A stretch of DNA of 64,000 bases from an uncultured virus (IMG/VR IMGVR_UViG_3300021255_000111) (Duplodnaviria; Heunggongvirae; Uroviricota; Caudoviricetes), in IMG/VR virus record IMGVR_UViG_3300021255_000111. The stretch is one strand, 5' to 3'. Every line of letters begins with the position of its first letter. Positions within the stretch are counted from its first letter, which is position 1. Shown in pieces: positions 2,688 to 51,952 of the stretch. Under the pieces are notes generated by a model. That model was not told where the DNA came from. It searched no databases and saw nothing but the letters and a program-made list of their open reading frames with translations. The position numbers and the translations under genes are program-made.

Positions 2688-2693
2688 ACGTCC

Positions 2694-4397: not shown

Positions 4398-4492
4398 GGA
4401 TTTTGCCCTAAAAGTCCTCAAAGTTCCACATGATTTGACTGAAATCGTTTCTTCATTGCTCTCTTGAAACCCCGATGTACAGGGCGTTTTCC

Positions 4493-4802: not shown

Positions 4803-4873
4803 GAATTTCCGTTGTTGTACCAAATTGAGAGCACAAAGTAGTCTATTTATTAACGTTTTTAACACTAAGAGCA

Positions 4874-9725: not shown

Positions 9726-9759
9726 CTTATATGTTTCACAATTTAAAGCACTAAGAGCA

Positions 9760-14532: not shown

Positions 14533-14587
14533 TCAAGTTCGGTGAGGTGTGGTTTTTCCATGCCTCACCTTTCCTACATCAAGAGCA

Positions 14588-15766
14588 ATGAAATATCAGT
14601 TAAGAGAATACCAAAGGGATGCAAGTATAGCGGCTGTCAAGTGCTTCAAGTCTAAGGGCAAAAGGAACGGCTTGCTCGTTCTGCCTACAGGAGCAGGAAA
14701 GAGCCTCGTTATAGCAGACATCGCATCTAAACTGGATGGTCCCCTGTTGGTGTTCCAACCGTCAAAGGAGATTCTTGAACAGAACTTTGCCAAGTTGCAG
14801 AGTTACGGCTGTTGGGATGCCGGAATCTATTCAGCGTCAGTAGGCCACAAGGACATCAACCGTATCACCTTCGCCACCATCGGAAGCGTCATGAATCACA
14901 TGGAGGACTTTGCTCACTTCAAGAACGTCATGATAGATGAGTGCCATGGAGTGAACAGCAAGGCAGGCCAGTACAAAGAGTTCCTGGAGGCAGAGGACAG
15001 GAAGGTTGTCGGACTGACAGCAACTCCATACCGCCTCTGTAGTTACATGAGCGGAAGCATGTTGAAGTTCATCACCAGAACGAAGCCACGTATTTTCGAT
15101 GACGTTTTGTACTACTGCCAGATTTCAGACCTGTTGGCCAAGGGCTACCTCGCCAACCTGCATTACTATGACCTAACGACATTGAACCTCGACAGGGTGC
15201 GTTCCAACTCCACAGGAGCAGACTTCGATGACAAGTCCTTGAAGGAGGAATACATCAGAAGCGGTTTCTATGACAAGCTGACCACTACCACCATCCGAGT
15301 ATTGAGACCGAAGAGCGGAATACCCAGAAAGGGAGTGCTCACTTTCACCAGATTCATAGAAGAGGCCGACAGTCTTGTTGGAAAACTGAGGGCTGTAGGT
15401 ATCAATGCCGATATTGTCACAGGAGAGACACCCAAGAAGGAACGTGAATCCATCTTGGAGCAGTTCAAGGCAGGAAGAATCAAGGTAGTTGCCAATGTTG
15501 GCACCCTCACTACAGGTTTCGACTATCCAGAACTTGATACTGTCATCCTTGGCCGTCCTACTAAATCCCTCGCTCTCTACTACCAGATGGTAGGCAGAGC
15601 CATCCGACCCTGCAAAGGTAAGGACGGATGGATAATAGACCTTGGAGGCTCATACAGGCGATTCGGCAATGTTGCCGACTTGAAGATAGACCTTGAAGCA
15701 CCATGCTCTTCAAGGTGGTGCGTGACCTCTCACGGAAAACAACTAACGAACGTATTATTCAGATGA
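14588..15766 (+). CDS. SF2 (DExH) helicase
   Basis: PTGAGKS, DECH, TAT, QMVGRAIR; start at AAGAGCA-ATG. Confidence 0.9.
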   Translation: MKYQLREYQRDASIAAVKCFKSKGKRNGLLVLPTGAGKSLVIADIASKLDGPLLVFQPSKEILEQNFAKLQSYGCWDAGIYSASVGHKDINRITFATIGSVMNHMEDFAHFKNVMIDECHGVNSKAGQYKEFLEAEDRKVVGLTATPYRLCSYMSGSMLKFITRTKPRIFDDVLYYCQISDLLAKGYLANLHYYDLTTLNLDRVRSNSTGADFDDKSLKEEYIRSGFYDKLTTTTIRVLRPKSGIPRKGVLTFTRFIEEADSLVGKLRAVGINADIVTGETPKKERESILEQFKAGRIKVVANVGTLTTGFDYPELDTVILGRPTKSLALYYQMVGRAIRPCKGKDGWIIDLGGSYRRFGNVADLKIDLEAPCSSRWCVTSHGKQLTNVLFR

Positions 15767-16830: not shown

Positions 16831-17601
16831 ATGGAGAGTTGGATAAAGATATACCGAAGATTCCTCGATTGGGAGTGGTACGGCAAATCTGAAATGGTTC
16901 ATCTGTTTCTTCATTTGCTTCTGAAAGCCAATGTCGAGGACAAACGATGGCAGGGAATAGTCATCAAGCGTGGCCAACTCGTTACAGGGCGTGGCAGTCT
17001 TATCGTAGAGACTGGTATATCGGAGAGAACTATTCGCACCTGCCTCCAGAAACTACAGGAAACAGGCGAAATAATAGTAGAAGCGTCCAACCGTTTTAGC
17101 CTCATAACTATCTGTAACTATGATAGTTACCAAGAACGAGAAACCGAAAGCGTCCAGCAAACGTCCAACCAACGTCCAACTACTAACCAACAAACGTCCA
17201 CGACTAAAGAAGGTATAGATTCTTCTGGCGAAGAATCAAACAAAACAAATATAACACGCACGAAGAAAACCAAGGCAGATGTGGCAGCTGACACCAAGAA
17301 GCGTATGTCAGACTTCTACAACTCCCTCATCCCATACGTCCAGATGTACGGAAAGCAGATGGTTCGTGAGTTCTACAACTACTGGAGTGAGACAAACAAA
17401 TCTGGTAGCAGGATGCGTTGGGAAATGGAAAAGACGTGGGTTCTTGAAAAGAGGCTACAGTATTGGAGCAGAAACGAAAAATCATATAGCACTAAGAGCA
17501 ATGAAAGTCAGTCAGATAATAGAACAAGGGAGGAAAGAGATAGAGGCGCATCGGACCTCGTTACCAGACTGCTTGCCGAAAACAAGCCAGTTGGTCAGTA
17601 A
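16831..17601 (+). CDS. Replication initiator (lambda O-like) with internal iterons
   Basis: 'WIKIYRRFLDWEWY', HTH, iterons at 17151-17200, C-terminal 'FYNYW' domain. Confidence 0.8.
   Translation: MESWIKIYRRFLDWEWYGKSEMVHLFLHLLLKANVEDKRWQGIVIKRGQLVTGRGSLIVETGISERTIRTCLQKLQETGEIIVEASNRFSLITICNYDSYQERETESVQQTSNQRPTTNQQTSTTKEGIDSSGEESNKTNITRTKKTKADVAADTKKRMSDFYNSLIPYVQMYGKQMVREFYNYWSETNKSGSRMRWEMEKTWVLEKRLQYWSRNEKSYSTKSNESQSDNRTREERDRGASDLVTRLLAENKPVGQ
17081..17210 (+). repeat. Origin iterons inside the replication gene
   Basis: CGTCCA at 17084, 17151, 17162, 17173, 17195 (11-bp period). Confidence 0.8.
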
Positions 17602-19268: not shown

Positions 19269-19370
19269 GTTAAACTTAGTCAATGTGCATGAAACTTTTG
19301 AATCCATCGTTTTGATATTCAGAAACTTTGTTGTAACTTTGCCAGAGCAAACATTTAAAAGTAAAGAGCA
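19269..19370 (+). promoter_or_regulatory. Class I promoter cassette
   Basis: cgTTTTGATATTCAGAAA...TAACTTTGccagagcaaac...aaaagtaaagagca; TTTG-N19-TAACTTTG. Confidence 0.85.
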
Positions 19371-19610
19371 ATGAAATCGGTAAAATGTACAAACTCAGAA
19401 AGCAAGTCTGTTTCGTTCTGCTTGAACGGACATGAGACTAACCAGATTATCGTCAATGCCAAGCAGGACGGAGAGTTCTGGTTTCACATCGGAATGTATA
19501 AGACATTGAAGAATGCCAAGAAGCAGGCCATCCGTCAGATGACGTTATTCGGCTACACTCTCGACCAGAAGGAACTTGACGATGTAACCATAGACAGCCT
19601 GCTATCATAG
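19371..19610 (+). CDS. Small early protein
   Basis: First gene after a class I promoter. Confidence 0.7.
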   Translation: MKSVKCTNSESKSVSFCLNGHETNQIIVNAKQDGEFWFHIGMYKTLKNAKKQAIRQMTLFGYTLDQKELDDVTIDSLLS

Positions 19611-20397: not shown

Positions 20398-20449
20398 TTA
20401 TAGGATTCGCAGGAGTAACCGCCCTGCACGTTTAAACCAATATAGAGCA

Positions 20450-21058
20450 ATGAAAGAGTTAAAGTTAGATGTGCCACAGGAAAAGGCACAGGAGTTCGCA
20501 AAAGAAATGATTGCACTCGCAGAGAAGTATGATGTTAAGGTTAAAGGTATTGACACCTTGCTACCCATCACAGAGAGAGTAAAGACCTATGAGGATGCCT
20601 GTCATGTACTCGGCTTCGAGCCTGTAGATTTCTACAAGTTACGTTATTCGTCACCCATTGATGGTAGTCGATGCTTCTTGGAAAAAGATGAGGTAGCCTA
20701 CATCAAGTTAAAGACTATCGCTGCCGCCCTCAACGAAGGATGGGAGCCTCAGTTTACTACTGATGAATACCGTTGGTACCCTTGGTTTACTCTCTGGACG
20801 GAAGAGGAACTGAAAGGCAAGTCAGAGCAATGGAAGAAAGACCATGCGCTGTGGCTCTTTGGCGGTGACTCGGACACCGGTGCGGCGTGCGGTCTCGCTT
20901 GTGCGAACTCGTACTCCGCTTGGTCGGGCTCGAACTCGGCCTTCTCGGCTCGCCTTGCTGTCAAGTCTGAGGAACTGGCCGTTTACTTCGGTAAGCAGTT
21001 TATTTCCATCTGGGCTGACTATGTAGGTCCGTTTAACCGAAAGGAGGCTGAGAAATGA
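20450..21058 (+). CDS. Putative DGR target protein with CLec-like variable region
   Basis: Start at TAGAGCA-ATG; C-terminal 'GGDSDTGAACGLACANSYSAWSGSNSAFSARL' encoded by A-poor VR-like DNA. Confidence 0.7.
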   Translation: MKELKLDVPQEKAQEFAKEMIALAEKYDVKVKGIDTLLPITERVKTYEDACHVLGFEPVDFYKLRYSSPIDGSRCFLEKDEVAYIKLKTIAAALNEGWEPQFTTDEYRWYPWFTLWTEEELKGKSEQWKKDHALWLFGGDSDTGAACGLACANSYSAWSGSNSAFSARLAVKSEELAVYFGKQFISIWADYVGPFNRKEAEK

Positions 21059-23114: not shown

Positions 23115-23216
23115 GTTAATCTTCTGTAATGTACTGAAAATCAATAGATATTTCGTTTTGATATTCAGAAATCTTTGACTAACTTTGCCAGAGCAAACCC
23201 CTAAAAGTAAAGAGCA
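23115..23216 (+). promoter_or_regulatory. Class I promoter cassette
   Basis: TTTG 23157, TAACTTTG 23180, ccagagcaaac...aaaagtaaagagca. Confidence 0.85.
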
Positions 23217-23600
23217 ATGAAACGAGCAGAAGAAATTCAGATTTTACAGTCCCTCAAAGGTGATACCTATTTTGCGGACTTCTTCGGAGAGCACGACATC
23301 GACCAGATGTGTGAGAACATCAAGAATGACTTCGGTCTGGAGTTAGGTTGTAACTTCTACCAGAAGGCTGAAATCTACCAGAAGCAGGTCAAGGACACCG
23401 AGAAGAAGGCCAAGGAGCAGAAGGAGAATTTCGTCCGTGGTCTGATAGATGACTTTGACGGTCATATCCCATCCGAGATTTACGACAGACTGGAAGATGC
23501 AGTTGGAAAGCTGTTCATCATCAACTGGAAGCGTCAGCAGGAATATCCGCTCACAGAAGCAGAGATAGACTGGCTGGTCACTGTAGCGAACAAGAAGTAA
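23217..23600 (+). CDS. Hypothetical early protein
   Basis: AAGAGCA-ATG start after a class I promoter. Confidence 0.7.
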   Translation: MKRAEEIQILQSLKGDTYFADFFGEHDIDQMCENIKNDFGLELGCNFYQKAEIYQKQVKDTEKKAKEQKENFVRGLIDDFDGHIPSEIYDRLEDAVGKLFIINWKRQQEYPLTEAEIDWLVTVANKK

Positions 23601-23645
23601 AGGTAACGGCATGGCTAACCACCCTGCCATCTAAAAGATAGAGCA

Positions 23646-23900
23646 ATGGAAATCGTAGAAAAGAACGTTAAGGATGGTGCACGTGAATACAAGTTTGATA
23701 ACGGTGCATGGGTAAAACTCGACATTGATGGCGAGTATGGTTCTTGGGAGTACCAAGAAGATGAGGATGATGAGGAAACCTACATGGAAGGTGGAATCTG
23801 GTTTGACGGCAAGCAGATTGAGGACTACGATGGCTGTTTTGAACTGCCAGAGGAAGTTGTTGCTGCACTGAATGAACTCGGTTACTCACTTGATGAATGA
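23646..23900 (+). CDS. Very acidic small protein (possible DNA mimic)
   Basis: 84 aa, strongly D/E-rich; AGAGCA-ATG start. Confidence 0.6.
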   Translation: MEIVEKNVKDGAREYKFDNGAWVKLDIDGEYGSWEYQEDEDDEETYMEGGIWFDGKQIEDYDGCFELPEEVVAALNELGYSLDE

Positions 23901-24197: not shown

Positions 24198-24209
24198 AGG
24201 AACAGAGCA

Positions 24210-24494
24210 ATGAACACAGAAGAAACGAAGCAATCAGCATACCAGAGAATCAAGGAGCAACTTGACAAGTTGTTTGTTCCTGGTTCCATCCCCAATGTCA
24301 AAGCCTTCAAGAAGATTATCTCTGACCTCAGAAAGCGTATCAAGTTACTTGAAGCAGGAACTCCCTTCTTTGCCTCCGGCATGGAAGATGTCTCAAAGGC
24401 TCAGTCGGCAATCGCCAGACTGAGTGGTGAATTACAGGCATATCAAGAACGGTATGCCTTGATACAGGAACGTTTAAAATCGAATGCAGTATGA
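24210..24494 (+). CDS. Hypothetical protein
   Basis: AGAGCA-ATG start. Confidence 0.65.
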   Translation: MNTEETKQSAYQRIKEQLDKLFVPGSIPNVKAFKKIISDLRKRIKLLEAGTPFFASGMEDVSKAQSAIARLSGELQAYQERYALIQERLKSNAV

Positions 24495-31968: not shown

Positions 31969-32348
31969 GAAAAGTATCAGATGCAGTAGCCGCCAAGTTG
32001 GCGGCAAAGACACAACGAAGGAAGAATAAACTTCTGAAAGCCCTTGCCGAAAGCAAGGGTATCGTTGCGTATGCCTGCGAGGCTGCAGGTGTAAGCAGAA
32101 ACACGTATTATGAGTGGTTCAAGAACGATGAGGACTTCAAGCAGAAAGCGGAGGACATCACCGAAGCAACCCTTGACAGAGTTGAGGCCAAACTGTTGGA
32201 GGCCATCAATGATGACAACCTAACAGCCATCATTTTCTATCTGAAAACGAAAGGCAGGAACAGAGGCTATGTAGAGAGGATAGAGAATGAGCACATGGGT
32301 AACGCTTTCGAGAAGCTGATGAAGGAATTACCAGACGAAGAAGAATGA
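31965..32348 (+). CDS. Terminase small subunit (HTH)
   Basis: 'ACEAAGVSRNTYYEW', 'AIIFYLKTKG..RGY'; directly upstream of TerL. Confidence 0.8.
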   Translation: MRKVSDAVAAKLAAKTQRRKNKLLKALAESKGIVAYACEAAGVSRNTYYEWFKNDEDFKQKAEDITEATLDRVEAKLLEAINDDNLTAIIFYLKTKGRNRGYVERIENEHMGNAFEKLMKELPDEEE

Positions 32349-33859
32349 CCGTAGAGGAAAAGGGAAGAAGCAGAATGCAGGCATGGAGAAACGACTGGCC
32401 ACTGTTTGCCAAAGAAGTGCTCCATGCTCGACTTGACGATGAACAGATAGCGATACTGCGTGCCGTCCAGACTGAGAGGATGGTTGCTGTCGCTTCTGGA
32501 ACGGCAAGAGGCAAGGACTATATCGCTGCCGTTGCCGCCATCTGTTTCATGTACCTCACCCCACGTTTCGACAAAGATGGCAACCTCGTAAAGAATACGA
32601 AGATTGCCATGACTGCACCTACAGGCCGACAGGTGAAGGACATTATGATACCAGAGGTGTCACGTCTCTTCAAGAAGGCAGGCATCCTCCCTGGTGTTCT
32701 GTTATCAAACGGCATCCGCACCACCTATCAAGAATGGTACTTGACTGGCTTCAAATCGTCAGCAGACAACACTGAGGCTTGGTCTGGATTCCATGCTGTG
32801 AACACGATGTTCATAGTCACTGAGGCATCTGGTATTCCAGAGGCTACGTATAATGCCATCGAAGGTAACTTGCAAGGTAATTCTCGCCTGCTATTAGTAT
32901 TCAACCCAAACGTAACAACAGGCTACGCAGCGAAAGCCATGAAGTCACCACGTTTTAAGAAGTTCCGTCTAAACAGCCTCAACGCAGAGAACGTGGTAAA
33001 GAAGAAGAGTATCATTCCCGGACAGGTGGATTACGAATGGGTTAAGGATAAGGTGGAGAACTGGGCAACCCCCATCCGTCAAGATGAGTTTGATGAAGGT
33101 ATGGGTGACTTCCGTTGGGAAGGTGCTTTCTACCGTCCTAACGACCTGTTCCGTGTCAAGGTGCTTGGTATGTTCCCGAAAGTGTCTGAGGATATTCTTA
33201 TCCCTTACGAATGGGTGGAACTGGCCATCAAGCGTTGGCATAAGTTGAAGGAGGAAGGATTTACAACCAAGAAACACGCACGTGTCGGTGTCGATGTCGC
33301 AGGCATGGGTAGAGACTGTAGCGTTCTGTTGCCTCGTTACGGATCGTGGGTTCCGAAAATCGAGGTTCATCAGTCTGGAGGAAATGCTGACCACATGAAG
33401 ATAGCAGGAAAGACGGTCATCTACCTGCAAGATGAGAAAGCCAAGGCGTTCATTGATACCATCGGTGAGGGCGCAGGTGTATATTCTCGACTGCAGGAGT
33501 TGGAGTATTATAATTCATACTCCTGCAAGAACTCGGAAGGAACGAGAGGCCTGCATGACATCACAGAGCAGTACACGTTCGCCAACATGAGGGCGTATCT
33601 CTTCTGGTGTGTTAGGGACTGGTTGAATCCGAAGAATGGCTTTGCTCCTGCCTTGCCTCCAGATGACTTGTTGGTTGAAGAGGCTACAGATATTCACTGG
33701 TCATTCCTCAGCAACGGCTCGATAATTATTGAGAAGAAGGAGGAAATAAAGAAGCGTCTGAAACGCTCTCCAGACCGCTTTGATGCTCTGGCCATGACAT
33801 TCTATCCACATGATTATGACTACGCAAATGATGAAAAGTTGCTAAATAATTTGCTGTAA
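32345..33859 (+). CDS. terL: Terminase large subunit
   Basis: 'GTARGKD' Walker A-like, 'IVTEASG', RNase H-like 'GVDVAGMGRD', 'SPDRFDAL'. Confidence 0.9.
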   Translation: MTVEEKGRSRMQAWRNDWPLFAKEVLHARLDDEQIAILRAVQTERMVAVASGTARGKDYIAAVAAICFMYLTPRFDKDGNLVKNTKIAMTAPTGRQVKDIMIPEVSRLFKKAGILPGVLLSNGIRTTYQEWYLTGFKSSADNTEAWSGFHAVNTMFIVTEASGIPEATYNAIEGNLQGNSRLLLVFNPNVTTGYAAKAMKSPRFKKFRLNSLNAENVVKKKSIIPGQVDYEWVKDKVENWATPIRQDEFDEGMGDFRWEGAFYRPNDLFRVKVLGMFPKVSEDILIPYEWVELAIKRWHKLKEEGFTTKKHARVGVDVAGMGRDCSVLLPRYGSWVPKIEVHQSGGNADHMKIAGKTVIYLQDEKAKAFIDTIGEGAGVYSRLQELEYYNSYSCKNSEGTRGLHDITEQYTFANMRAYLFWCVRDWLNPKNGFAPALPPDDLLVEEATDIHWSFLSNGSIIIEKKEEIKKRLKRSPDRFDALAMTFYPHDYDYANDEKLLNNLL

Positions 33860-33883
33860 TTACGAAAGATGAAAAAAGTTTTG

Positions 33884-33891
33884 TAACTTTG
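33884..33891 (+). promoter_or_regulatory. -7 box (TAACTTTG) of the candidate sRNA
   Basis: Matches TAnnTTTG; no canonical -33 TTTG at 19-21 bp spacing. Confidence 0.6.
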
Positions 33892-33896
33892 CAACC

Positions 33897-33965
33897 GAAA
33901 TCGTTTCTTTTGACGATTTCATTGCTCTTAGTGCTTCGGTTCGTGATGAATAGGAGCACTTTTTC
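33897..33965 (+). ncRNA. Candidate antisense sRNA-1 against (A)GAGCA-AUG start regions
   Basis: 5' hairpin GAAATCGT/ACGATTTC, unpaired ATTGCTCTT, terminator AGTGCTTC...GGAGCACT plus T tract; complementary to 15 gene starts. Confidence 0.75.
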
Positions 33966-34044
33966 TGTTAATAAGCGTTATTGGCCACTGGAGGCAATCA
34001 ATCGTTAAGCAACCGTTAAAACTCTGTTAGCATTAACTAATCTT

Positions 34045-34200
34045 GACAATGGGAAAGTCAAGTTAAGTTAATGATTCGTTAAATCCTTCTCCTAAAGTTC
34101 TACAATAGTTCCAAAAACGGCCACCCTTATACTTATCCATCTGCATGGAATTAAGGCCACCATGAGGATTTTGCCCAAAATGGTTGAAATGTGCAAAAAG
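34045..34200 (+). repeat. Long intergenic repeat, copy C
   Basis: 42-bp identity with copy D (agttaagttaatgattcgttaaatccttctcctaaagttcta). Confidence 0.85.
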
Positions 34201-34206
34201 TTATCT

Positions 34207-34319
34207 GTTAATCTTCTGTAATGTATTGATAATTAAAAGTTTAATCGTTTTGATATTCAGAAAATAATGTGTAACTTTGCCAGAGCAAACAGCATTAAAC
34301 AACTTAAAAGTAAAGAGCA
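34207..34319 (+). promoter_or_regulatory. Class I promoter cassette
   Basis: TTTG 34249, TAACTTTG 34272. Confidence 0.85.
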
Positions 34320-34562
34320 ATGGAAACGTCAAGAATTAGTTTGAATCAGATTGAGGTTGACACAGCAACCTATCGTTGGAACCTCGGTAGAGCACCCAAA
34401 GGAAAAGGCCAGTGGTATTTCGCCATCGGTAACAGAAGAGAAGCAATGGATGACATCACGAAAGCGTTTGCCACAGGGTACATGTCTTACACTGATGCCG
34501 TCAAGGTCGCTAAGAGAGAAGCCCAGAAGAAGGGCGTTACTACCATCTACGTCTTACCATAA
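34320..34562 (+). CDS. Small early protein
   Basis: 'GRAPKGKGQWYF'; AAGAGCA-ATG start. Confidence 0.7.
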   Translation: METSRISLNQIEVDTATYRWNLGRAPKGKGQWYFAIGNRREAMDDITKAFATGYMSYTDAVKVAKREAQKKGVTTIYVLP

Positions 34563-34572
34563 CTCAACGGAT

Positions 34573-34815
34573 ATGAAACTGATAGGAACGTATAAGATAC
34601 CAGAATACGCTATCTGTGCCATTGAATATGGTGATTATAGCGGTATCTCGGATGAGGATGAGCAGGAGATTAAGAATTTCCTCATCAGAGAGTTTCCCAA
34701 TGGGTATGTAGTTGATTGGCATACTAACGAACCAGAGCATGAGCCGTACTTCTCATCGGTGCCAGAATTTGGACTGCCAACGACAGTAGTAGATGCAGAT
34801 TTTTATGAACCCTAA
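34573..34815 (+). CDS. Acidic small protein (DUF6926-like)
   Basis: 'IPEYAICAIEYGDYSGISDEDE...EPYFS..PEFG'. Confidence 0.6.
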   Translation: MKLIGTYKIPEYAICAIEYGDYSGISDEDEQEIKNFLIREFPNGYVVDWHTNEPEHEPYFSSVPEFGLPTTVVDADFYEP

Positions 34816-34827
34816 AAGATAAGAGCA

Positions 34828-35838
34828 ATGAAATCAGAATTAGTAGTAGAGAAGTTCGCTGACTTGATAATAGAGCGAATGGAACAGATGAAAGAAGCGA
34901 AATGGGAGAAAGGTTGGATTGGTACCACGTTTGGCGAAATGCCGATGAACATCAGAGGCAGGGAGTATAACGGAACGAACTCGTTCCTGCTTTTCCTCCT
35001 TGCAAGCATGAAGGACTGGAAGTACCCCCTGTTTGCAACCTTCCACCAGATTAAGGAACTCGGAGGCAGTATCAATAAGGGAGCAGAATCGTTCCCTGTA
35101 CTCTACTGGAAGATTGTGTACAAGACCAAGGACGGTGAGAAGATTGACAGCCTCGATGGACTTTCCAGAGAAGAGAAGAAAGCCTGTACGTACTATCCTG
35201 TGTTGAGGTCGTATAACGTATTCAACATCAGTCAGACCAACTTGGAGGAAGTTGCCCCGAAGGTCATAGAGAAGCTGAAGGTCAAGTTCCATGTTGAAGA
35301 GCCTCCGAAGGACACTCTTGGAATGTATGAGAACGCAGACATTGACGATATGCTGACGTACCAGAAGTGGCTTTGCCCCATTCACTACCAGAATCCGTCA
35401 AACGAAGCCTACTACCGTCCAAGTAAGGATGAGATAGTAGTGCCTATGAAAACGCAGTTCTACGATGGTACAAGTGAAGAGAAGAAGTATGTCAGCGGTA
35501 TGCGGTTCTACGATGTCCTTCTGCACGAAATGGCTCACTCAACAGGTCATGACAGCCGTCTGGCCAGAGGCAAGGGCAATCCGTTTGGCTCCAAGGAGTA
35601 TGCCAAGGAGGAACTGGTTGCAGAACTCACCGCAGCCATCATCGGCCAGACACTCGGCTTTGACCCTAAGATTATGGATAACAACGCCTGTTATCTGGAT
35701 TCGTGGATAAAGACCATGAAGAAAGAGCCAAAGTTTATCGTCTCTGTCCTGGCTGATGTTAACAAGGCAGCTCAGATGATTCTCGAAGTAGTGAATAAGG
35801 AACATGAAGTATTAGTAGAAACGGAGGAAGAAGCATGA
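34828..35838 (+). CDS. ardC: ArdC-like antirestriction protein (ssDNA-binding + zincin metallopeptidase)
   Basis: 'GREYNGTN', 'ATFHQ', 'YNVFNISQT', HExxH 'LLHEMAHSTGH', 'YAKEELVAE'. Confidence 0.85.
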   Translation: MKSELVVEKFADLIIERMEQMKEAKWEKGWIGTTFGEMPMNIRGREYNGTNSFLLFLLASMKDWKYPLFATFHQIKELGGSINKGAESFPVLYWKIVYKTKDGEKIDSLDGLSREEKKACTYYPVLRSYNVFNISQTNLEEVAPKVIEKLKVKFHVEEPPKDTLGMYENADIDDMLTYQKWLCPIHYQNPSNEAYYRPSKDEIVVPMKTQFYDGTSEEKKYVSGMRFYDVLLHEMAHSTGHDSRLARGKGNPFGSKEYAKEELVAELTAAIIGQTLGFDPKIMDNNACYLDSWIKTMKKEPKFIVSVLADVNKAAQMILEVVNKEHEVLVETEEEA

Positions 35839-36026
35839 AGTATCAAGTAAAGATAATAGAAACCCTCTCTCGCATTGTCGAGGTGGATGCCCAGAGTAAC
35901 GATGAGGCTTGGGATAAGGTTGAGAAGATGTATAAGAAATCCCAGATAGTCTTGGATGACACAGACTTTGATGGATATGAGATATATGGTCTTGGTGAGG
36001 TCAAGGATGGAAACGAAAACCAGTAA
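35835..36026 (+). CDS. DpnD/PcfM-like protein
   Basis: 'YQVKIIETLSRIVEVDA.S.DEA...Y...IVLD..DF'. Confidence 0.7.
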   Translation: MKYQVKIIETLSRIVEVDAQSNDEAWDKVEKMYKKSQIVLDDTDFDGYEIYGLGEVKDGNENQ

Positions 36027-36246
36027 GGCTATAGGATTGTTCAAGGATGGCAGGTTGCGGGATGCGCTTGCCATCTTCAAAACCTTCAAGATTGGCTTCA
36101 CGAAGGATGAGCGCAGGACCATCCAGATAGCCAGTGAGACATTGAACGGATCTGGCCAGTTCTACCAGAGGCTTGGCATTGATACCGCTCTGGAGGTGCA
36201 AAAGTCAATAACTGTTATCAAGCAGAAGTACATGAAAGTCCTATAG
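36007..36246 (+). CDS. Hypothetical protein
   Basis: ATG 36007; 'FYQRLGID'. Confidence 0.6.
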   Translation: METKTSKAIGLFKDGRLRDALAIFKTFKIGFTKDERRTIQIASETLNGSGQFYQRLGIDTALEVQKSITVIKQKYMKVL

Positions 36247-36347
36247 TTAATCTTAGTTTATGTGCCGAAAATCTCTGGAAGCATCGTTTTGATATTCAGA
36301 AATAATTGGCTAACTTTGCCTGTGCAAACCTATAAAAGTAAAGAGCA
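36246..36347 (+). promoter_or_regulatory. Class I promoter cassette
   Basis: TTTG 36288, TAACTTTG 36311. Confidence 0.85.
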
Positions 36348-36551
36348 ATGAAATTAGTCGAAATCAAACACAGAAAGAATGGTAAGGAGTATGTGAAGCG
36401 TGGTGCTTACATCTACTCGGTGAAGAAGAACGGTGAGTTATACGCTCATCCAGTATGGTACGAGGCTCTGTATGGCGAGAACACACAAGAAGATGTTCTG
36501 GCTCGTCTCCAGAGGTTGAATCCTAAGAGCAGATTTGAATTGAAGAAGTAA
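36348..36551 (+). CDS. Small early protein
   Basis: AAGAGCA-ATG start. Confidence 0.7.
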   Translation: MKLVEIKHRKNGKEYVKRGAYIYSVKKNGELYAHPVWYEALYGENTQEDVLARLQRLNPKSRFELKK

Positions 36552-36568
36552 CCCTAAAAGATAGAGCA

Positions 36569-36925
36569 ATGAAATTAGTTACGAAAGAAGTAGAGAAACG
36601 ATTGCAGGAATATCCGCTCTACAGTCAAGACGGCAAGAAGAAGGATGCAATCTGTGTAGTGAAGTTCTTTATGTGTGGTGTCAACTACACTTGGTACATT
36701 CTGGAAGCAGACTTGGAGAATAAGGTACTCTTCGGCATCACCATCAACAGCCACGGTGAAGCTGAATACGGCTACACCAGTCTGTCTGAACTTGAAACAG
36801 TCAAGAACAGTTGGGGGCTTGGAGTGGAGCGAGACCTGTACTTCGAGCCAACGAAGTTGTCAGACATTGACGATGACATCTTGAAGAAGTTCTTGGATAA
36901 CCTTTATTCGGAGGATGCAGCATGA
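36569..36925 (+). CDS. DUF2958-like protein
   Basis: 'VVKFF...TWYILE...EYGYTSLSEL...VERDLYF'. Confidence 0.8.
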   Translation: MKLVTKEVEKRLQEYPLYSQDGKKKDAICVVKFFMCGVNYTWYILEADLENKVLFGITINSHGEAEYGYTSLSELETVKNSWGLGVERDLYFEPTKLSDIDDDILKKFLDNLYSEDAA

Positions 36926-37070
36926 GTAAGATGAAAGATTGTTGCGAGAGTTGCAGGCATTGGAAGAGCATGGACCTCCATTACTATGAGTGTACTAACA
37001 GGTGGAGCCAGAACTATGGCAGAAGCATGAGTAGAGGACAGTCTTGTAACGAGTTTGAAGAGGATTGACT

Positions 37071-37355
37071 ATGGGAAAGAAGTCTGACGCAGGAACCATG
37101 ATTACCCCTGCATATCTCTATGATAAGGACGGTAAGCAGATTGGCTTCACCAACTATGACAACAAGGCGATTGCCTATGCGATGGCCAATCACGAAAGAG
37201 TAGATAAGGCTGAGACCTTTGATGCTATGTTCGGCAAGGTCACTGTTGAGAGGAAAAGTTTCTCTGCATCAGCACTTGAAAAGGTCAAGGATAAGAGAAA
37301 GTACGGTGAGCACCTGCTGTTTTGGGTAGGTGCTCCCTTGGTTGTTAACAAGTAA
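37071..37355 (+). CDS. Hypothetical protein
   Basis: Co-oriented ORF in an island. Confidence 0.55.
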   Translation: MGKKSDAGTMITPAYLYDKDGKQIGFTNYDNKAIAYAMANHERVDKAETFDAMFGKVTVERKSFSASALEKVKDKRKYGEHLLFWVGAPLVVNK

Positions 37356-37630
37356 TCAGAATAAGTTATGAAACAGGTATATGTATTATCGTACAACGCA
37401 GGTGTATTAGGAGTGTTCTGGTCAAAGGACAAGGCACTGGCAGAGAAGAGAGACTATATAGATAACGACTACAAGGGCGTTAAGGTTGAAGAATTTTATG
37501 TTTACTAAGATTATGGTGATGAAATACAAGATAGAGAACGGAAAGCACTTGCAGGCTATTCGTAGTCCTTATGATGGACGTGTAACTGGTTGGATAGACA
37601 TTACCGACAAAAACAAAAGGAAATAAGATT

Positions 37631-37990
37631 ATGGCACAGGAAGTAAATATCAGTCAGTCGAACATCAAGATAGAACTGACACCTATGATGAAGCAGTACT
37701 ACGATTTTAAGGAGAAGCATCCAGAGGCATTGTTACTCTTCAGATGCGGTGACTTCTACGAAACCTACGAGGAAGATGCTGTAGAAAGTGCAAAGATACT
37801 CGGCATCACTCTCACCAAGCGGACTTCTGACAAGACTAAGATGGCAGGATTCCCTCATCACGCCCTCGACACCTATCTGCCGAAACTGATAAGAGCCGGC
37901 AAGAGGGTTGCCATCGTTGACCAGTTGGAAGACCCCAGACTTACCAAGAAGTTGGTGAAAAGAGGAATAACAGAATTGGTGAATCCGTAA
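37631..37990 (+). CDS. Stand-alone MutS domain I protein
   Basis: '[32 protein letters not shown]', '[22 protein letters not shown]'. Confidence 0.88.
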
Positions 37991-38699
37991 AGGCGGTACG
38001 GCCAGATTCAACGTTCTGGCCATCAGCAAGCGCAAGAGAGTTATCCGTATTTTCGGAGGCGAAGTCCCTTTGAAGTTGCACTCCCGAAACATTAGAAACA
38101 GACAAAAACAGGAACTTGAAAGCGGACGCAGGAAGTCGAGCCAACAAAGAGACATGAAAACTGTGTTGGGGCTTTTAGAACTGTGCAGGAACAGTCCGAA
38201 TATGTCACGCGAAAAGGTTTTGACAGGTTAAGTGACACCCAAAGACCACGTTACGGAGTACAGGGCATGGCAAGTGGAAAGGAATCACCTCTGCCTTTCC
38301 CTTTCCAGAAAAAGAACAGATAATATGGCACAGTCAAACGAAACGAAATGTCACCACACCAGAAGGGATGGCCGTAAGGTTATCTGGGAGTACATGGGAA
38401 TCACCATGCTTGAACCATCCAAGAAAGCAGGTAAAGACCCCTGCAAGAATTGTTGGGCGAAGGATCTGTGTGACAAGGATGAGTGTGGCCGCAAGTTATA
38501 TCCATTATTCGTAAACAAAGTGAAATGAGAAATAGAGTAAAGACAAGAACGGAATCATGGCTGATTCAGCAGATGTGGAACTGCCGTCAAGAAGCCAACC
38601 TGTACCAGACGGAGAGATTCAAGAACAATCCGTCTCGCTTTCTTGCTGCATCCTACATGCAGCGAAGCCAAGAGAACTACAGAGTACAATTAAGGCTCT

Positions 38700-38765
38700 A
38701 CAGAGGATTTTTAGCCTCTCGCCCTAATAACTACCCACACACAGAAAAATAACGTCTCAAAACGT
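38700..38765 (+). repeat. Short intergenic-type repeat, copy E2
   Basis: cgccctaataactacccac...aaaa..acgtctca; overlaps the end of a small ORF. Confidence 0.65.
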
Positions 38766-38894: not shown

Positions 38895-40361
38895 ATGGGC
38901 GATATATCGAAAGTTATAAATTTCAAGAGCGAAGACAAGAACGCCATTGTTAACGCCTTGAAGCGGAAGTCTGTTAAGGTTGCAGACTGGGATGAATCAG
39001 TCAAGGACTATGAGCCTACCCTGCACAAGATTGTTAAGGACAATGAAGTGCTGAAGGATAAGATTCGTTCTGACGGTACTGTTGAGAAGTCTGCCAGAAT
39101 CTATGTTGGTCTGGAGAAGCTGTTGTGTAAACGTGTCTCTGAGTTCACCTTTGCCATTCCAGTAAAGCGTGTCTACTCGAACATCAACAATGAAGATGGC
39201 AAGCCGAATGACATTAGGCAGGCTATCGCAAAGGCTATCGAGGCAATCTACAAGAATGTCCGTATTGATTCCGTCAACTTGAAACGTGCTCTAAAATACT
39301 ATGCAGCCTGCGAGATTTTTACTGTATGGTATGCCGTCAAGAAGAAGAATACCCTGTATGGCTTTGATTCTAACTACAAGTTGAAGTGTAAGACTTACTC
39401 TCCAATGGACGGAGTTAAGTTATACCCTCTCATTGATGAGTTAGATGATATGCTCGCTATGTCCTTCGAGTACCATAAGAAGGATGCAAATGGTGAAGAT
39501 GTGGTGTTCTTTGAGACCTATACTGAAAATCGCCATTACATCTGGAAGCAGAACCTCTCTGGAGGCGGTTGGGAAGAAGTTCTGACCGAGGTAGGAGAAG
39601 AAGGAGAGCAGTCTGGTGAAGAGATTATCCTTATGAAGATTCCTGGTGTTTACGGCTACCGTAACGTTCCTGTCTATGACGGACTGACCAATCTCAGAGA
39701 GGAAATCGAATACACCCTGTCTCGTAACTCGAATGTTATTGCCTATAACTCTGCACCAGTCTTGAAAATATCTGGTGGTGTCAAAGGACAGGAGGATAAG
39801 GGCGAGAGCCGAAGGATATTCCGTACAGAGAACGGTGGCGATGTTGCCTACGTATCATGGCAGCAGGCTATCGAGGCATTGAAGTATCATGTTGATACCA
39901 TGCTCAAACTCTACTGGATGCAGGCTCAGATGCCAGACATTTCCTTCGACAACTTGAAGAGCCTTGGCAACATCGGATTTGATGCTCGCCAGACCCTTCT
40001 CACCGATGCCCACTTGAAGGTAGGTGATGAGGCAGGAGCATGGATAGAGTTCTTGGAGCGTGAATGTAATGTCGTTAAGGCATTCTTGAAAGCGATATGT
40101 CCTAAGGAGTGGGTTAATGAGATTGACAATGTTGACGTTGAACATATCCTCACTCCGTTTATTCAGAATGATGAACTGGCAGAGATTAACAAGCGTATGA
40201 AGGCTAATGGTGGCAAAGCCATCGAGAGCCAGTTGGAATCCATTCAGCGTTATGGCCAGTCTGATGACGCACAGGCCACCTTGGAACAGATACAGACAGA
40301 AGAGAAGGTTGCCACCGAGAATCGGGCAAACGCTTTCAGCCTTGGAGAACAAACAATGTAA
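38895..40361 (+). CDS. Portal protein (SPP1 gp6-like)
   Basis: 488 aa, between terminase and minor head/capsid genes; 'NVIAYNSAP', 'MPDISF'. Confidence 0.8.
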   Translation: MGDISKVINFKSEDKNAIVNALKRKSVKVADWDESVKDYEPTLHKIVKDNEVLKDKIRSDGTVEKSARIYVGLEKLLCKRVSEFTFAIPVKRVYSNINNEDGKPNDIRQAIAKAIEAIYKNVRIDSVNLKRALKYYAACEIFTVWYAVKKKNTLYGFDSNYKLKCKTYSPMDGVKLYPLIDELDDMLAMSFEYHKKDANGEDVVFFETYTENRHYIWKQNLSGGGWEEVLTEVGEEGEQSGEEIILMKIPGVYGYRNVPVYDGLTNLREEIEYTLSRNSNVIAYNSAPVLKISGGVKGQEDKGESRRIFRTENGGDVAYVSWQQAIEALKYHVDTMLKLYWMQAQMPDISFDNLKSLGNIGFDARQTLLTDAHLKVGDEAGAWIEFLERECNVVKAFLKAICPKEWVNEIDNVDVEHILTPFIQNDELAEINKRMKANGGKAIESQLESIQRYGQSDDAQATLEQIQTEEKVATENRANAFSLGEQTM

Positions 40362-40395
40362 GAGCAATGATATTGTTAAATTAAAACGATTGATT

Positions 40396-44238: not shown

Positions 44239-44255
44239 GTTAGTATCTTTGCAGC

Positions 44256-44474
44256 ATGAAGTTAAAGGAAGAACTGACAGAGAAAATGCACTCCGAGTTT
44301 TCGGTAAGTGACGAAACAGATCAGAAGCACCGTGCAGGAAGTGTCTGGAGGCTATTAGGCTACGAGGCATCCAGACAAGATGTTGAGCATTGGGCAAAGA
44401 GGTTTGGCACTACATACGAGAAATGTATGGAGTGGATGGCCTACTGGAGAAACCTCAGAGAAAATAGTAAATGA
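44256..44474 (+). CDS. Small protein, candidate immunity protein
   Basis: 72 aa directly after MuF; own TATCTTTG box at 44244-44251. Confidence 0.55.
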   Translation: MKLKEELTEKMHSEFSVSDETDQKHRAGSVWRLLGYEASRQDVEHWAKRFGTTYEKCMEWMAYWRNLRENSK

Positions 44475-44550
44475 CAAAAAGTTGAAAATTCTTACTGTTG
44501 TGAATATGGGTGCCAAGATGGATGCAGAAGTTCATTTTGACACCCTTTAA

Positions 44551-44700
44551 CTTTGTTGAGGCTCAGTTAAGTTAATGATTCGTTAAATCCTTCTCCTAAA
44601 GTTCTATAAAAGTTTATAATATTACCCCCTTTATACTTATCCACAAGCAAGAAAATCTGGCCACCTTGCGGATTTCGCAAAAACGTACAAAATTCTGTCA
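44551..44700 (+). repeat. Long intergenic repeat, copy D
   Basis: cagttaagttaa (44564)...ccctttatacttatccac...ggccaccttgcggatttcgc. Confidence 0.85.
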
Positions 44701-44732
44701 GAAATTATGAATCTGGCGTAAAAAGTCCAATC

Positions 44733-44846
44733 GTTAAACATTTGTAATGTGCTGAAAATAAATGATTTTCCGTTTTGATATTCAGAAATAAAGCAGTAAC
44801 TTTGCCAGAGCAATACAGCAATAAAATAACTTAAAAGAATTGAGCA
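44733..44846 (+). promoter_or_regulatory. Class I promoter cassette
   Basis: TTTG 44774, TAACTTTG 44797, ccagagcaat. Confidence 0.85.
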
Positions 44847-45185
44847 ATGAAATCGTACATTATCTATCAAGTAAACGATGAGACCAAGAATGGTCGTTAC
44901 ATCAAATTCATGGGTCTGGATTTCGTAAAGGATAATGACCTTTGCACTATGAGCGGTGACCTCTGCAAACTCGACAGCGACTTGTACAACAAAGTCTATG
45001 AGGGACAGACAGAGGTAGGTGAGGATGAGGAAGCCATCGTCACTCTTGAATACCTGTACATGAAGTTCCAAGGAGAGAAGCCAGAAGGTTACACTGGCCA
45101 CAGCCTTTCAGTATCAGACGTGGTAGTTCTGGACGGAACAGCCTACTACGTGGATGACTGCGGATTTGAGAAGATTGACTTTTAA
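44847..45185 (+). CDS. YodL-like domain protein
   Basis: 'YIIYQ', 'LEYLY.KF...P.GYTGHSLSVSDVVVL...YYVDDCGF'. Confidence 0.85.
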   Translation: MKSYIIYQVNDETKNGRYIKFMGLDFVKDNDLCTMSGDLCKLDSDLYNKVYEGQTEVGEDEEAIVTLEYLYMKFQGEKPEGYTGHSLSVSDVVVLDGTAYYVDDCGFEKIDF

Positions 45186-45196
45186 ATAGAAACGAT

Positions 45197-45502
45197 ATGA
45201 ATTACAGTCAGAAGAAAGTGCTTGACTACTACAAGCAGACCAAGGGAGAGTTCAACGTTTATTCTTTCAATCCAGAGACCAAGAAGAGAGATTCGGCCTA
45301 CCTCGGCCTTGACTGCCTCACCGCCTTCCAAGAAATGGTGAACAAGGCACAGCAGGGTTTCCTCATCCTCGTTCTTGACAACGAGGGTGAAGGATATGCC
45401 TCCAGATGGGAGATAGACAACAAGGAGCGTGTTAGTTACGACACCTGCAGGCAGTGGGCTGTTAAGACTTACGTGATGTCAAACGCTATATCTAAGATTT
45501 AA
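45197..45502 (+). CDS. Hypothetical protein
   Basis: Operon packing. Confidence 0.6.
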   Translation: MNYSQKKVLDYYKQTKGEFNVYSFNPETKKRDSAYLGLDCLTAFQEMVNKAQQGFLILVLDNEGEGYASRWEIDNKERVSYDTCRQWAVKTYVMSNAISKI

Positions 45503-45532
45503 GGAGAAAATTAACCATCAATATTAAGAGCA

Positions 45533-46030
45533 ATGAAAGAAGTCTTTTTTAACGATTTGGGCAATCTGTCAGAAAGAGATTGCAAGGCCATCCGAGATAT
45601 TATGGATGGTGTGAGTTACTACAAGTTTGATGTAAGCTGGTCGAACGTCAACGGCAACTGCCGGCTGATTGTCAAGACTGACTATCCGAAGGCTACTGAC
45701 GAAGATGTCAAGAACATGTTCATGCACGTCCTTGCCTGTAAGGCTGCAGGACTGGCACACCAGAAGAAGATTTTGGAAGAGTTCGCCACTCTCCATTATC
45801 AGCATCCAGAAGGTGTGGTTATGTATGAATGGTGTAATCGCCTGTTTTTCTACTTTGGTGACAGAGACAAGGCGCAGCAGGTTCTTGACCATCCAGAGTG
45901 TGGTATCTGTATCACCTGTACGGATCCAGACAACTGGCCAGTGGCCTCCATCCCTGTAGCCGGTATGCAGGAGGCTCTAACGAAATTCAGAGAGAAGGAA
46001 GTAGAAGTGTATTACGTAAGATTATATTGA
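45533..46030 (+). CDS. Hypothetical protein
   Basis: TAAGAGCA-ATG start. Confidence 0.65.
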   Translation: MKEVFFNDLGNLSERDCKAIRDIMDGVSYYKFDVSWSNVNGNCRLIVKTDYPKATDEDVKNMFMHVLACKAAGLAHQKKILEEFATLHYQHPEGVVMYEWCNRLFFYFGDRDKAQQVLDHPECGICITCTDPDNWPVASIPVAGMQEALTKFREKEVEVYYVRLY

Positions 46031-46221
46031 TTATGGGATTCTGTAGTAAGAAAGAAGAAGCCGTTTACAACTGGCTTGTAGAGAATGGAAGCGAGAAGGT
46101 TGCTATTGAGGTGACGAATATCCTTAACTCCAACCAGATTGATGACCTCTATGACGGTCTTGTTCATGATTTCGAGATTGAGGAAGAGGATGAGGACGAA
46201 GATGAGGATGACGAATAATAA

Positions 46222-46671
46222 ATGAATCTGACTATGGATAAGATATGTAAGAATTGTCAGCACTGGAAGCCTCTTACTGACAGTTGCAAGGTAGAAGGAT
46301 GCGCAAAGGGCCATGATGTCATTAGGACTACAGACCATTGCGATAATGATTTCCTGGCCGTTGAGCCTAAGAAGGTGTATCTCATTGAAGAGGGAGATTC
46401 CCACCTATCCAAAGCCAGTCGTGTTCTGATGGGTGTTTTCGACAGCAAGGACGAACTTGAAAAAGGTGCGAGGAAACTCATCACTGAGAGGGTGAAGGAT
46501 AATTTCTCTTCTTGGGAGTGGAGAGAGAAAGACTGTACAGAGGAAGAGGCCGTACAGGATTTCATCGACCACGAAGTGCAGGTGCTCATGGATGACTACC
46601 AGACGCACTACGGAAAGGTTCTGTTCCTTGTCAGCGAAGCAACACTGAATGAGGTTGAAGAGGTTCTATAG
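46222..46671 (+). CDS. Hypothetical protein with N-terminal CxxC motif
   Basis: Operon packing. Confidence 0.6.
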   Translation: MNLTMDKICKNCQHWKPLTDSCKVEGCAKGHDVIRTTDHCDNDFLAVEPKKVYLIEEGDSHLSKASRVLMGVFDSKDELEKGARKLITERVKDNFSSWEWREKDCTEEEAVQDFIDHEVQVLMDDYQTHYGKVLFLVSEATLNEVEEVL

Positions 46672-46864: not shown

Positions 46865-46897
46865 TGTTTGTTATTCAAATAGAATTAACTATCTTTG
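46865..46897 (+). promoter_or_regulatory. Class II promoter of the head operon
   Basis: TTTGTTATTCAAATA; TTTG-N19-TATCTTTG. Confidence 0.8.
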
Positions 46898-46901
46898 CGA
46901 C

Positions 46902-47006
46902 CGAAAGCGTGTGTTGATGCACGTGACAGAACACTGAACGTACTGAACATTGCTCATGGTGCTTTACGTTGATGGTCTGCCTGTGTTCCACTCGCAGACC
47001 ATTTTT
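46902..47006 (+). ncRNA. Structured leader / candidate sRNA-2 with the CATTGCTC seed
   Basis: aacgta/tacgtt stem enclosing CATTGCTCATGGTGCTT; terminator atggtctgc/gcagaccat plus T tract. Confidence 0.55.
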
Positions 47007-51857: not shown

Positions 51858-51930
51858 GCTTTGATAGCTCAGTTGGTAGAGCATTAGATTTTTAATCTGA
51901 GGGTCACAGGTTCGAATCCTGTTCAAGGCA
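51858..51930 (+). tRNA. tRNA-Lys(TTT), CCA not encoded
   Basis: Acceptor gctttga/tcaaggc, D arm gctcagttggtagagc, anticodon ttaga-TTTTTAA-tctga, T arm acagg-TTCGAAT-cctgt. Confidence 0.9.
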
Positions 51931-51952
51931 CACAAATCAAAATTGTCGCAGT

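Follow-up and report, generated by a model that had tools for sequence, protein, structure and literature searches.

Can a tailed phage control the translation of a scattered set of its own genes with one small RNA (sRNA) that reads a sequence shared by their start codons? The question is raised by a short element in a 64,000-nt stretch of DNA from an uncultured virus of the class Caudoviricetes (IMG/VR record IMGVR_UViG_3300021255_000111; the whole stretch is called the window below), where the terminase large subunit gene, terL, is directly followed on the plus strand, at 33884–33964, by what a preliminary description proposed as the gene of a "master-switch" RNA antisense to the starts of 15 phage genes. 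We find that the element looks like a gene for a structured small RNA, here named sRNA-1, rather than a mini-open reading frame (ORF) or a chance inverted copy of a gene leader, and we consider it fairly probable that sRNA-1 acts in trans as a translational repressor of the phage's own non-structural regulon. Its transcription, its pairing in vivo, the sign and timing of the regulation and the title of master switch are what we infer from comparative sequence analysis.

The sequence of the element is as first described, its coordinates were confirmed, and its parts are the following:

33884–33891 (+): sRNA-1 promoter, −7 box TAACTTTG of the TAnnTTTG type, which we take to be the −7 consensus of Bacteroidota
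33896–33964 (+): predicted sRNA-1 transcript of about 69 nt, from the fold and a covariance model
33897–33920 (+): 5′ hairpin GAAATCGT/ACGATTTC
33921–33929 (+): single-stranded seed AUUGCUCUU, predicted to be unpaired and read as ATTGCTCTT
33930–33964 (+): terminator hairpin AGTGCT...AGCACT (33930–33960) with an apical GUGA(U) loop, followed by a U5 run to 33964

With the C that precedes it, the seed reads CATTGCTC, antisense to GAGCAATG, and the 5′ arm of the terminator, AGTGCTT, lengthens the complementarity to the genes starting at 9760, 17501 and 4874. The plus strand folds into the 5′ hairpin, the 9-nt unpaired seed and the terminator with an energy of −24.6 kcal/mol and a z score of −4.12, equalled by 1 of 200 shuffled sequences; the box, hairpin, unpaired seed and terminator claimed for the locus are thus all borne out in sequence and fold. 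The box TAACTTTG occurs 10 times in the window, compared with 2.33 expected, a count reached in none of 100 shuffles.

Several observations on the surroundings and design of the element deserve mention in their own right. The inner TTCGTGAnGAA motif with its GUGA-loop terminator recurs elsewhere in these phages, in the window at 2640–2690 (+) and at L092:19663–19724 (minus strand), and the copy in the relative G004 lies 3′ of a TATCTTTG box and a hairpin and lacks the CATTGCTC seed, so that it may represent another small RNA. The sequence AAAGTTAAAT is common to many relatives (L040–L080), 10–25 nt 3′ of the sRNA-1 terminator, and the window has several GTTAA repeats at 33990–34080. At 4436–4465 (+), GAAATCGTTTCTTCATTGCTCTC resembles sRNA-1 without the 3′ arm of its first hairpin and has no TAnnTTTG box upstream; it adjoins a fragment at 4470–4510 that resembles a tRNA 3′ end (GGTTCGAATCC, minus strand) and is probably the attachment site beside the integrase gene.

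The element is conserved as an RNA gene would be. We compared the 3 kb downstream of terL in the best 80 terL relatives in IMG/VR (70–99% amino acid identity) and found box, hairpin, CATTGCTC, hairpin and T run right 3′ of the terL stop codon in 51 of them, with the unit displaced downstream in 1 more; in 5 relatives, the TAA stop codon of terL is itself the first triplet of the TAnnTTTG box. The unit also stands 3′ of terL in prophages of named Bacteroidaceae, Prevotella, Gallipaludibacter and Parabacteroides faecalis assemblies. In more distant Bacteroidota terL relatives (≤63%), the portal gene comes directly next. Among 26 distinct variants, T1, A2, T5, T6 and T7 of the box never vary, G8 is conserved to at least 90%, the terminator hairpin and U run are always present, and positions A38–C44 of the seed (ATTGCTC) do not change while both stems vary. 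Folded singly, all 26 form two hairpins around the seed; in the minimum free energy (MFE) folds, GCTC is unpaired in 23 and ATTGCTC wholly unpaired in 16. The seed is constant in hosts from Prevotella to Parabacteroides. Seed variants do exist, in L140 (CATTGCTT) and in L131, and the corresponding pattern in host genomes, ARRGCAATGR (two genomes), is too loose to test matching leaders.

R1, a covariance model derived from six sequences, recovers 28 distinct members (E<0.02) and scores sRNA-1 of the window at 90.2 bits (E 7e-16). In the R1 alignment, 96.6% of the cells pair, compared with 75.2% in shuffles (none of 500 as high) and 40–48% with slid partners, and double, compensatory changes occur in 14 of 18 base pairs overall (4 of the 6 modelled in the 5′ hairpin and 10 of 12 in the terminator). 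G-U pairs, valid on the plus strand only, are frequent; at two positions, UG accounts for 16 of 28 and GU for 23 of 28. On a plain MAFFT alignment, RNAalifold returned no pairs, as the indel-rich 5′ hairpin was misaligned, a problem that the covariance model solved. In relatives, then, the antisense unit persists as a plus-strand transcription unit that combines a box, an invariant seed between two covarying hairpins, and a U run. By the marks of a trans-encoded sRNA, the element has, in silico, its own promoter and intrinsic terminator, together with a conserved accessible seed flanked by covarying structure and a complementarity to several mRNAs at functional sites that exceeds chance. R1 matched only the centre genome among the 151 Bacteroidales species genomes searched (strict filters, 32 candidates scored per genome), and a blastn search with the element matched nothing among GenBank phages. 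Two further related records, G019 and G015, also gave no sRNA match; their fragments contain no terL, portal or head genes and are uninformative in this respect.

What would the seed read? Recomputation returned all 15 perfect antisense matches at gene starts, each at exactly the length first given, and in all 15 the pairing spans the AUG and the first one to three codons. The targets, dispersed over 4.8–45.5 kb, are listed by length of match:

17488–17506 (+): DUF6633 protein (ATG 17501), 19 nt, duplex −32.1 kcal/mol
9746–9762 (+): Sak4-like/AAA_24 recombination protein (ATG 9760), 17 nt, duplex −35.5 kcal/mol, the best plus-strand site of the window
4863–4879 (+): first rightward gene after the integrase and attP (ATG 4874), 17 nt
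19364–19379 (+): ATG 19371, 16 nt, cassette gene, duplex −30.7 kcal/mol
34820–34835 (+): ArdC-like anti-restriction/zincin protein (ATG 34828), 16 nt
44842–44856 (+): YodL-like protein (ATG 44847), 15 nt, cassette gene
14581–14594 (+): ResIII/DEAD helicase (ATG 14588), 14 nt
36341–36354 (+): ATG 36348, 14 nt, cassette gene
45525–45538 (+): ATG 45533, 14 nt
23210–23222 (+): ATG 23217, 13 nt, cassette gene
36563–36575 (+): DUF2958 protein (ATG 36569), 13 nt
20444–20455 (+): ATG 20450, 12 nt
24204–24214 (+): ATG 24210, 11 nt
34313–34322 (+): ATG 34320, 10 nt, cassette gene
23640–23648 (+): ATG 23646, 9 nt

In a duplex scan of the whole window, the three best plus-strand sites are the start regions at 9760, 17501 and 19371, all among the targets first claimed, against a background of −11.1 ± 3.6 kcal/mol. 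The motif AAGAGCAATG, with at most one mismatch, occurs 23 times (19 on the plus and 4 on the minus strand) compared with 6.74 ± 2.82 expected, and none of 100 shuffles reaches 23. The starts of structural genes had been described as free of the motif, and it is indeed missing from the starts of terS, terL, the portal, the major head and the tail genes; the integrase start has no such tag either. It is genes preceded by an intergenic gap that carry the tag; the overlapping or abutting genes behind them are untagged. Two orphan plus-strand copies of AAGAGCAATG head no real gene: one at 40360–40369, after the portal stop codon, opens a 5-codon ORF, and one at 54259–54268 is in the wrong frame within the tape-measure gene. 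Almost all tagged genes have AAA as their second codon, and the window encodes a tRNA-Lys (UUU) at 51858–51931 (+), among the tail-assembly genes.

Five of the targets (ATG 19371, 23217, 34320, 36348 and 44847) are headed by a repeated cassette of about 70–80 nt:

19306–19373, 23152–23219, 34244–34322, 36283–36350 and 44769–44849 (+): promoter-leader cassettes of small accessory genes

The cassette has the layout TTTG-N19-TAACTTTG-CCAGAGCAAAC...TAAAAGTAAAGAGCAATG, that is, a canonical host-type promoter (−33 TTTG and −7 box) followed by the leader. Near the predicted 5′ end of the cassette transcripts, CAGAGCAA provides a second, partial match of 7 nt to the sRNA seed.

The tag is a property of a phage lineage. 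Across 15 genomes, the leader (A/T)AGAGCAATGAAA heads 148 ORFs of at least 40 codons, within the longer consensus AACnnnTAAAAGnnA(A/T)AGAGCAATGAAA. GAGCAATG is commoner than a reversed-pattern control (0–3 per strand) in 18 of 19 related records examined whole, and most of them carry it predominantly on the gene strand (gene strand/other strand: 25/3 in G006, 23/1 in G012, 13/1 in G011, 13/2 in G010, 17/2 in G016 and 15/0 in G019); G002, at 5/5, has no strand bias. Helicase orthologues of other phage groups have coupled starts of the TAATG type and no tag, which indicates that the tag goes with the phage lineage rather than with the gene. Of 45 copies of AGAGCAATGAA in five host genomes (1.8–4.3 Mb), 41 are on the contig that contains the prophage. 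By these sequence comparisons, the tag is a phage-private start signal and no general initiation signal of Bacteroidales. The one exception among the 19 records, G017, was considered as a different seed/leader pair and rejected: it is an unrelated 86-kb Bacteroidales phage in which GAGCAATG is not enriched and no clear antisense RNA was found. It has a leader of its own (AAGATTATG, in the form TTAAAA..ATAAAGATTATGAA; loci L280–L284) at no fewer than 8 gene starts, partly through repeated promoter-leader cassettes, and start-associated leaders may be common in phages of Bacteroidales.

If seed and tag pair, the bases that flank the core should change together between genomes, as the preliminary description expected, and they do. 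In 14 genomes, the genome's own sRNA-1 extends the target matches by 5.01 nt past the core, compared with 3.79 nt for the sRNA-1 of other genomes; none of 20000 permutations reaches this excess, both flanks contribute, and in 8 of the 14 rows of the comparison the own sRNA scores highest. Upstream, the Sak4-like leaders of the window and of its closest relative, G012, as well as the helicase leader of G012, carry AAGCACTAAGAG opposite CTCTTAGTGCTT in the sRNA, the orthologous leaders of G006 and G010 carry ACACACTAAGAG opposite CTCTTAGTGTGT, and several leaders of G001 and G009 carry ACATAAGAG opposite CTCTTATGT. Downstream, targets of the window type start with ATGAAAT(C), opposite GATTTCAT, and those of the G001 type with ATGAAAAC, opposite GTTTTCAT. 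The co-variation is good but not conclusive evidence of selection on pairing.

A second seed-bearing RNA, which the preliminary description did not include, lies further downstream:

46890–47005 (+): sRNA-2 unit, with a TATCTTTG box at 46890–46897 and a predicted RNA of about 104 nt at 46902–47005
46948–46955: sRNA-2 seed CATTGCTC, in a unit that ends in the terminator GGTCTGC/GCAGACC and a U run

sRNA-2 consists of a 5′ hairpin, a central seed-bearing region and a strong terminator, an architecture unlike that of sRNA-1, and it ends 21 nt 5′ of the first head-module gene (47026). A homologous element occupies the equivalent position in nearly all relatives; in most folds, the seed lies within the loop of a long-range stem, and of the consensus fold, hairpin 1 and the terminator of four rows are usable. 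One X19/X20 metatranscriptome contig appears to begin near 46910 and to run into gene 47026, contig ends not being transcript ends.

Collectively, these results suggest the following course of events. In this temperate Bacteroidales siphophage, sRNA-1, of about 69 nt, would be made from a host-type TAnnTTTG promoter of its own, right behind terL, and may also be released from the 3′ end of the terL message, since both transcripts would share the terminator. It would comprise a protective 5′ hairpin, the exposed seed (C)AUUGCUCUU and the intrinsic terminator. The seed would pair across the start codon, from about −9 to +6 and over up to 19–21 nt, with the leader (A/U)AGAGCAAUGAAA that heads about 15 independently initiated non-structural genes, among them recombination, helicase, anti-restriction and small accessory genes (the five cassette genes). 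Such pairing would occlude the initiation region and thereby repress translation; it may also trigger duplex-dependent decay of the mRNA. Given that the tag sits on genes that follow gaps and on none of the coupled genes behind them, blocking some 15 starts could silence whole runs of translationally coupled genes downstream. As both seed-bearing RNAs lie in the packaging and head part of the genome and the integrase is untagged, the likeliest role is to turn off the translation of early and accessory genes together, whether late in infection or in the lysogen. Late shut-off fits the untagged integrase, the position of both RNAs in the late region and the prediction that terL transcripts would end at the sRNA-1 terminator; expression in the lysogen from the host-type promoter, for maintenance or immunity, is equally open.

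A number of findings weigh against repression by sRNA-1. There is no −33 TTTG at the canonical spacing 5′ of its box. The weakest targets pair over 9–11 nt, with energies of −22 to −25 kcal/mol that some non-start sites equal. The MFE folds of 10 of the 26 variants pair some of the seed within the 5′ stem, and the R1 alignment, being fitted to the model, favours structure, with which the single-sequence folds nevertheless agree independently. The preliminary description had reckoned with relatives that keep the leader and lose the unit, and this applies in part: while 51 of the 80 terL relatives keep sRNA-1, 28 lack it within 3 kb 3′ of terL, and of these G003 and G004, checked whole, retain the tag and have the seed-bearing sRNA-2 instead. 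The exact seed is present in sRNA-2 of only about 10 of 17 genomes and is degenerate or absent in the other 7 (among them TTTGCTC in G012, CATTGTTC in G013, and none in G007, G009, G011 and G018), and sRNA-2 probably serves the head operon chiefly as a leader or attenuator, with anti-start pairing added in some lineages. The genomes behind the co-variation are related and not independent, and the excess of own over other matches could come from gene conversion or recombination among repeated copies. The leader consensus continues upstream (TAAAAG) beyond the reach of the sRNA, which indicates that the tag also has a function of its own. As to transcripts, 3 bovine-gut metatranscriptome runs contain 5–6% of the window's words, and RNA runs of the probable source sample also exist; the assembled contigs from 4 metatranscriptome runs, which stem from relatives, are of low depth and are unable to show small RNAs, give no start, end or level for a 70-nt RNA, and gaps in their coverage carry no meaning.

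Among other explanations, the one that survives best, which we nonetheless regard as rather unlikely, accepts the pairing and inverts its effect: the RNA would activate or stabilise the mRNA or guide its processing, for example at RNase III sites that separate cistrons, and the tag would primarily be a phage-specific translation signal, with a protein or the ribosome as its reader. The excess of the leader consensus over the pairing region and the independent initiation of tagged genes after gaps fit a translation-initiation signal, and the phage encodes a regulator of the LuxR/GerE type (Pfam), with no RNA chaperone identified. In favour of repression, the AUG and the first one to three codons are covered in every target, and such pairing blocks initiation in the sRNAs studied, including FopS and GibS of Bacteroides (PMC11697453, in its available part). 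An inhibitory structure for the pairing to open was not seen, nor was one searched for.

A purely cis-acting element, in which the hairpins terminate the terS-terL transcript and an inverted copy of the leader is kept similar by repeat recombination, has less to recommend it still. It would account for the position directly 3′ of terL and for an end that resembles an intrinsic terminator, and GUGA-loop terminators do occur elsewhere, as at 2640–2690. Yet a terminator needs neither an invariant −7 box 4–6 nt before its 5′ hairpin nor an invariant unpaired 8–10-mer between covarying stems, and the same seed recurs in a second RNA of different architecture besides remaining constant in hosts from Prevotella to Parabacteroides. 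A site that works as DNA, in packaging, recombination or protein binding, could be suspected from the neighbouring terS and terL and from the inverted repeats; it is very improbable in view of the many G-U stem pairs and of a plus strand that is more stable than the minus strand by 5–16 kcal/mol in 26 of 26 variants, which would be expected of a strand-specific RNA and not of a DNA cruciform, and stems that change sequence so freely would be unfit as a protein-binding site. Barely credible, finally, is the idea of a small protein gene on the minus strand (MKSSKETISVAKLQNFFHLS) that begins here and simply uses the common leader: the minus strand does hold the leader, an ATG and a 20-codon ORF, but this ORF varies from 4 to 101 codons among the 26 variants with only MK(S/T) shared and the ATG replaced by ATA in L071, no TAnnTTTG box is evident upstream on that strand within 33965–34260, and the pairwise compensatory stem substitutions are the signature of an RNA.

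The genome around this putative regulon is that of a temperate siphovirus-type phage, according to scans of its ORFs with PHROGs (78 ORFs) and Pfam (20 and 21 ORFs; the three sets overlap). The landmark genes are these:

998–1657: endolysin (PHROG/Pfam scans)
3083–4333 (−): integrase (PHROG/Pfam scans)
31965 (start): terS
32345–33859: terL
38895 (start): portal
42517 (start): head morphogenesis
48232 (start): major head protein
52903 (start): tape measure, with tail genes as well

After the integrase follows a long rightward block of non-structural genes, including the Sak4-like/AAA_24 gene (9760), SSB, NinB, the helicase (14588), NinG and a methyltransferase; the late region is broken by two islands of small accessory genes, at 34320–38750 and 44250–46670. 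The terL relatives are prophages of Bacteroidaceae, Prevotella, Parabacteroides, Paludibacteraceae and other Bacteroidales, and the sequencing runs that contain DNA of the window are metagenomes of bovine or other animal gut. GenBank phages include no close relative, the best terL identity being below 30%. Among the ORFs scanned, Pfam identified no repressor of the CI type, which does not imply that one is absent, and the PHROG and Pfam scans of the window ORFs recognised no antirepressor and reported no translational-repressor family.

A bolder extension, possible but on balance doubtful, is that the RNA replaces or backs up immunity by a protein repressor, with the prophage sRNA silencing all tagged early, replication and anti-defence genes, its own as well as those of incoming relatives. 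If so, there would be broad cross-immunity among gut and rumen phages, given that seed and tag are common to phages of Bacteroides, Prevotella, Parabacteroides and Paludibacteraceae, and the keeping of a private start-codon "barcode" would be explained. The same logic may also solve the puzzle of the start-associated sequences (SAS) of Cluster K mycobacteriophages, for which a lone copy in the opposite orientation is reported.

To our knowledge, Bacteroidota largely lack Shine-Dalgarno-led initiation, Hfq and ProQ, and post-transcriptional control in these bacteria and their phages is poorly known. If a phage regulon were delimited by a start-codon tag that its genes share and by an sRNA dedicated to reading it, in place of promoters, this would amount to a regulatory architecture of a new kind, with a single 9-nt seed as a simple handle on 15–25 genes per phage. 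Uncultured phages of gut and rumen commonly carry the system, which suggests a testable purpose for start-associated sequences and might be reused as a portable multi-gene translational switch for Bacteroides engineering. As a member is present in a cultured lysogen, Parabacteroides faecalis AGMB00274 (locus L158/L299:1501–1575), the idea is directly testable.

How does the system compare with those already described? The literature on sRNAs of Bacteroides phages and prophages, on phage sRNAs directed against early genes and on the motif strings yielded nothing equivalent in the parts available, and Bacteroid* goes unmentioned in the available part of a 2025 review on phage sRNAs (PMC12197685). 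The search for a known family that had been called for gave none: at gathering thresholds, Rfam 15 finds only the tRNA in the whole window, and at E up to 10 the region 33700–34400 gives chance matches of snoRNA type at 11–18 bits, far below gathering. This comparison takes in phage C4-type antisense RNAs and Bacteroides sRNA families as far as that release includes them.

RegA of phage T4 is a protein with a loose operator that represses the translation of many early mRNAs at their initiation regions; the two systems are alike in that one phage factor serves many early mRNAs, and here the specificity factor would be an RNA with exact complementarity. Among antisense RNAs, the CI RNA of phage P4 is a comparable immunity RNA, and both c4 and CI are processed from the operon that they control. 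An RNA of the c4 type lies within, and is processed from, the leader of the repressed operon and acts on ant, whereas sRNA-1 stands after terL. Like c4 of P1/P7 and sar of P22, as covered in the available part of PMC12197685, sRNA-1 would be a structured phage RNA of about 70–80 nt that pairs with a ribosome-binding region through a recognition sequence held single-stranded or in loops; the role in lysogeny and immunity is theirs. Unlike c4, sar and CI, which act on one mRNA, that of ant, or on few sites in one operon, sRNA-1 would have about 15 dispersed tagged targets and its own predicted promoter.

Closest in host are FopS and GibS of Bacteroides thetaiotaomicron, which, in the accessible sections of PMC11697453, repress several mRNAs by pairing with translation initiation regions. 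They share with sRNA-1 the host order, a promoter of the type of the sigma-ABfr promoter named in that paper, a length of about 65–70 nt, a single-stranded seed and a Rho-independent terminator. As described there, FopS is chromosomal, has its seed at an unstructured 5′ end and targets host mRNAs of susC and polysaccharide utilization loci (PULs), unlike sRNA-1, with its seed between hairpins and the phage's own genes as putative targets; the Rfam scan found no sequence or model similarity between the FopS family and sRNA-1.

The nearest parallel to the tag is SAS of Cluster K mycobacteriophages (Pope et al. 2011, PMC3203893; the points that follow are those of its available text), a 13-bp consensus, GGGATAGGAGCCC, located 3–7 bp 5′ of the start codon. 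Both are short, asymmetric, phage-private motifs near the ATG of 11–19 non-structural genes per genome, of varied families, and the tag behaves as SAS does in heading non-structural genes only, in one orientation, and in being absent from the host, which makes for an analogy and not for membership. The sequences are unrelated, as SAS contains a Shine-Dalgarno core and (A/T)AGAGCAATGAAA includes the ATG itself, and the hosts belong to different phyla. Whether SAS is read by an RNA or a protein was left open by its authors, and its role is still called unverified in the available part of a 2025 survey (PMC12699233). SAS, too, has a lone copy in the opposite orientation (PMC3203893), which in the present phages corresponds to the predicted sRNA seed. 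In the text available, no cognate antisense RNA is described for SAS, whereas here a conserved sRNA gene carries the complement. The system would work like SAS, c4/sar, FopS and RegA and belongs to none of them; what is unusual is the combination of a private start-codon barcode with a cognate sRNA.

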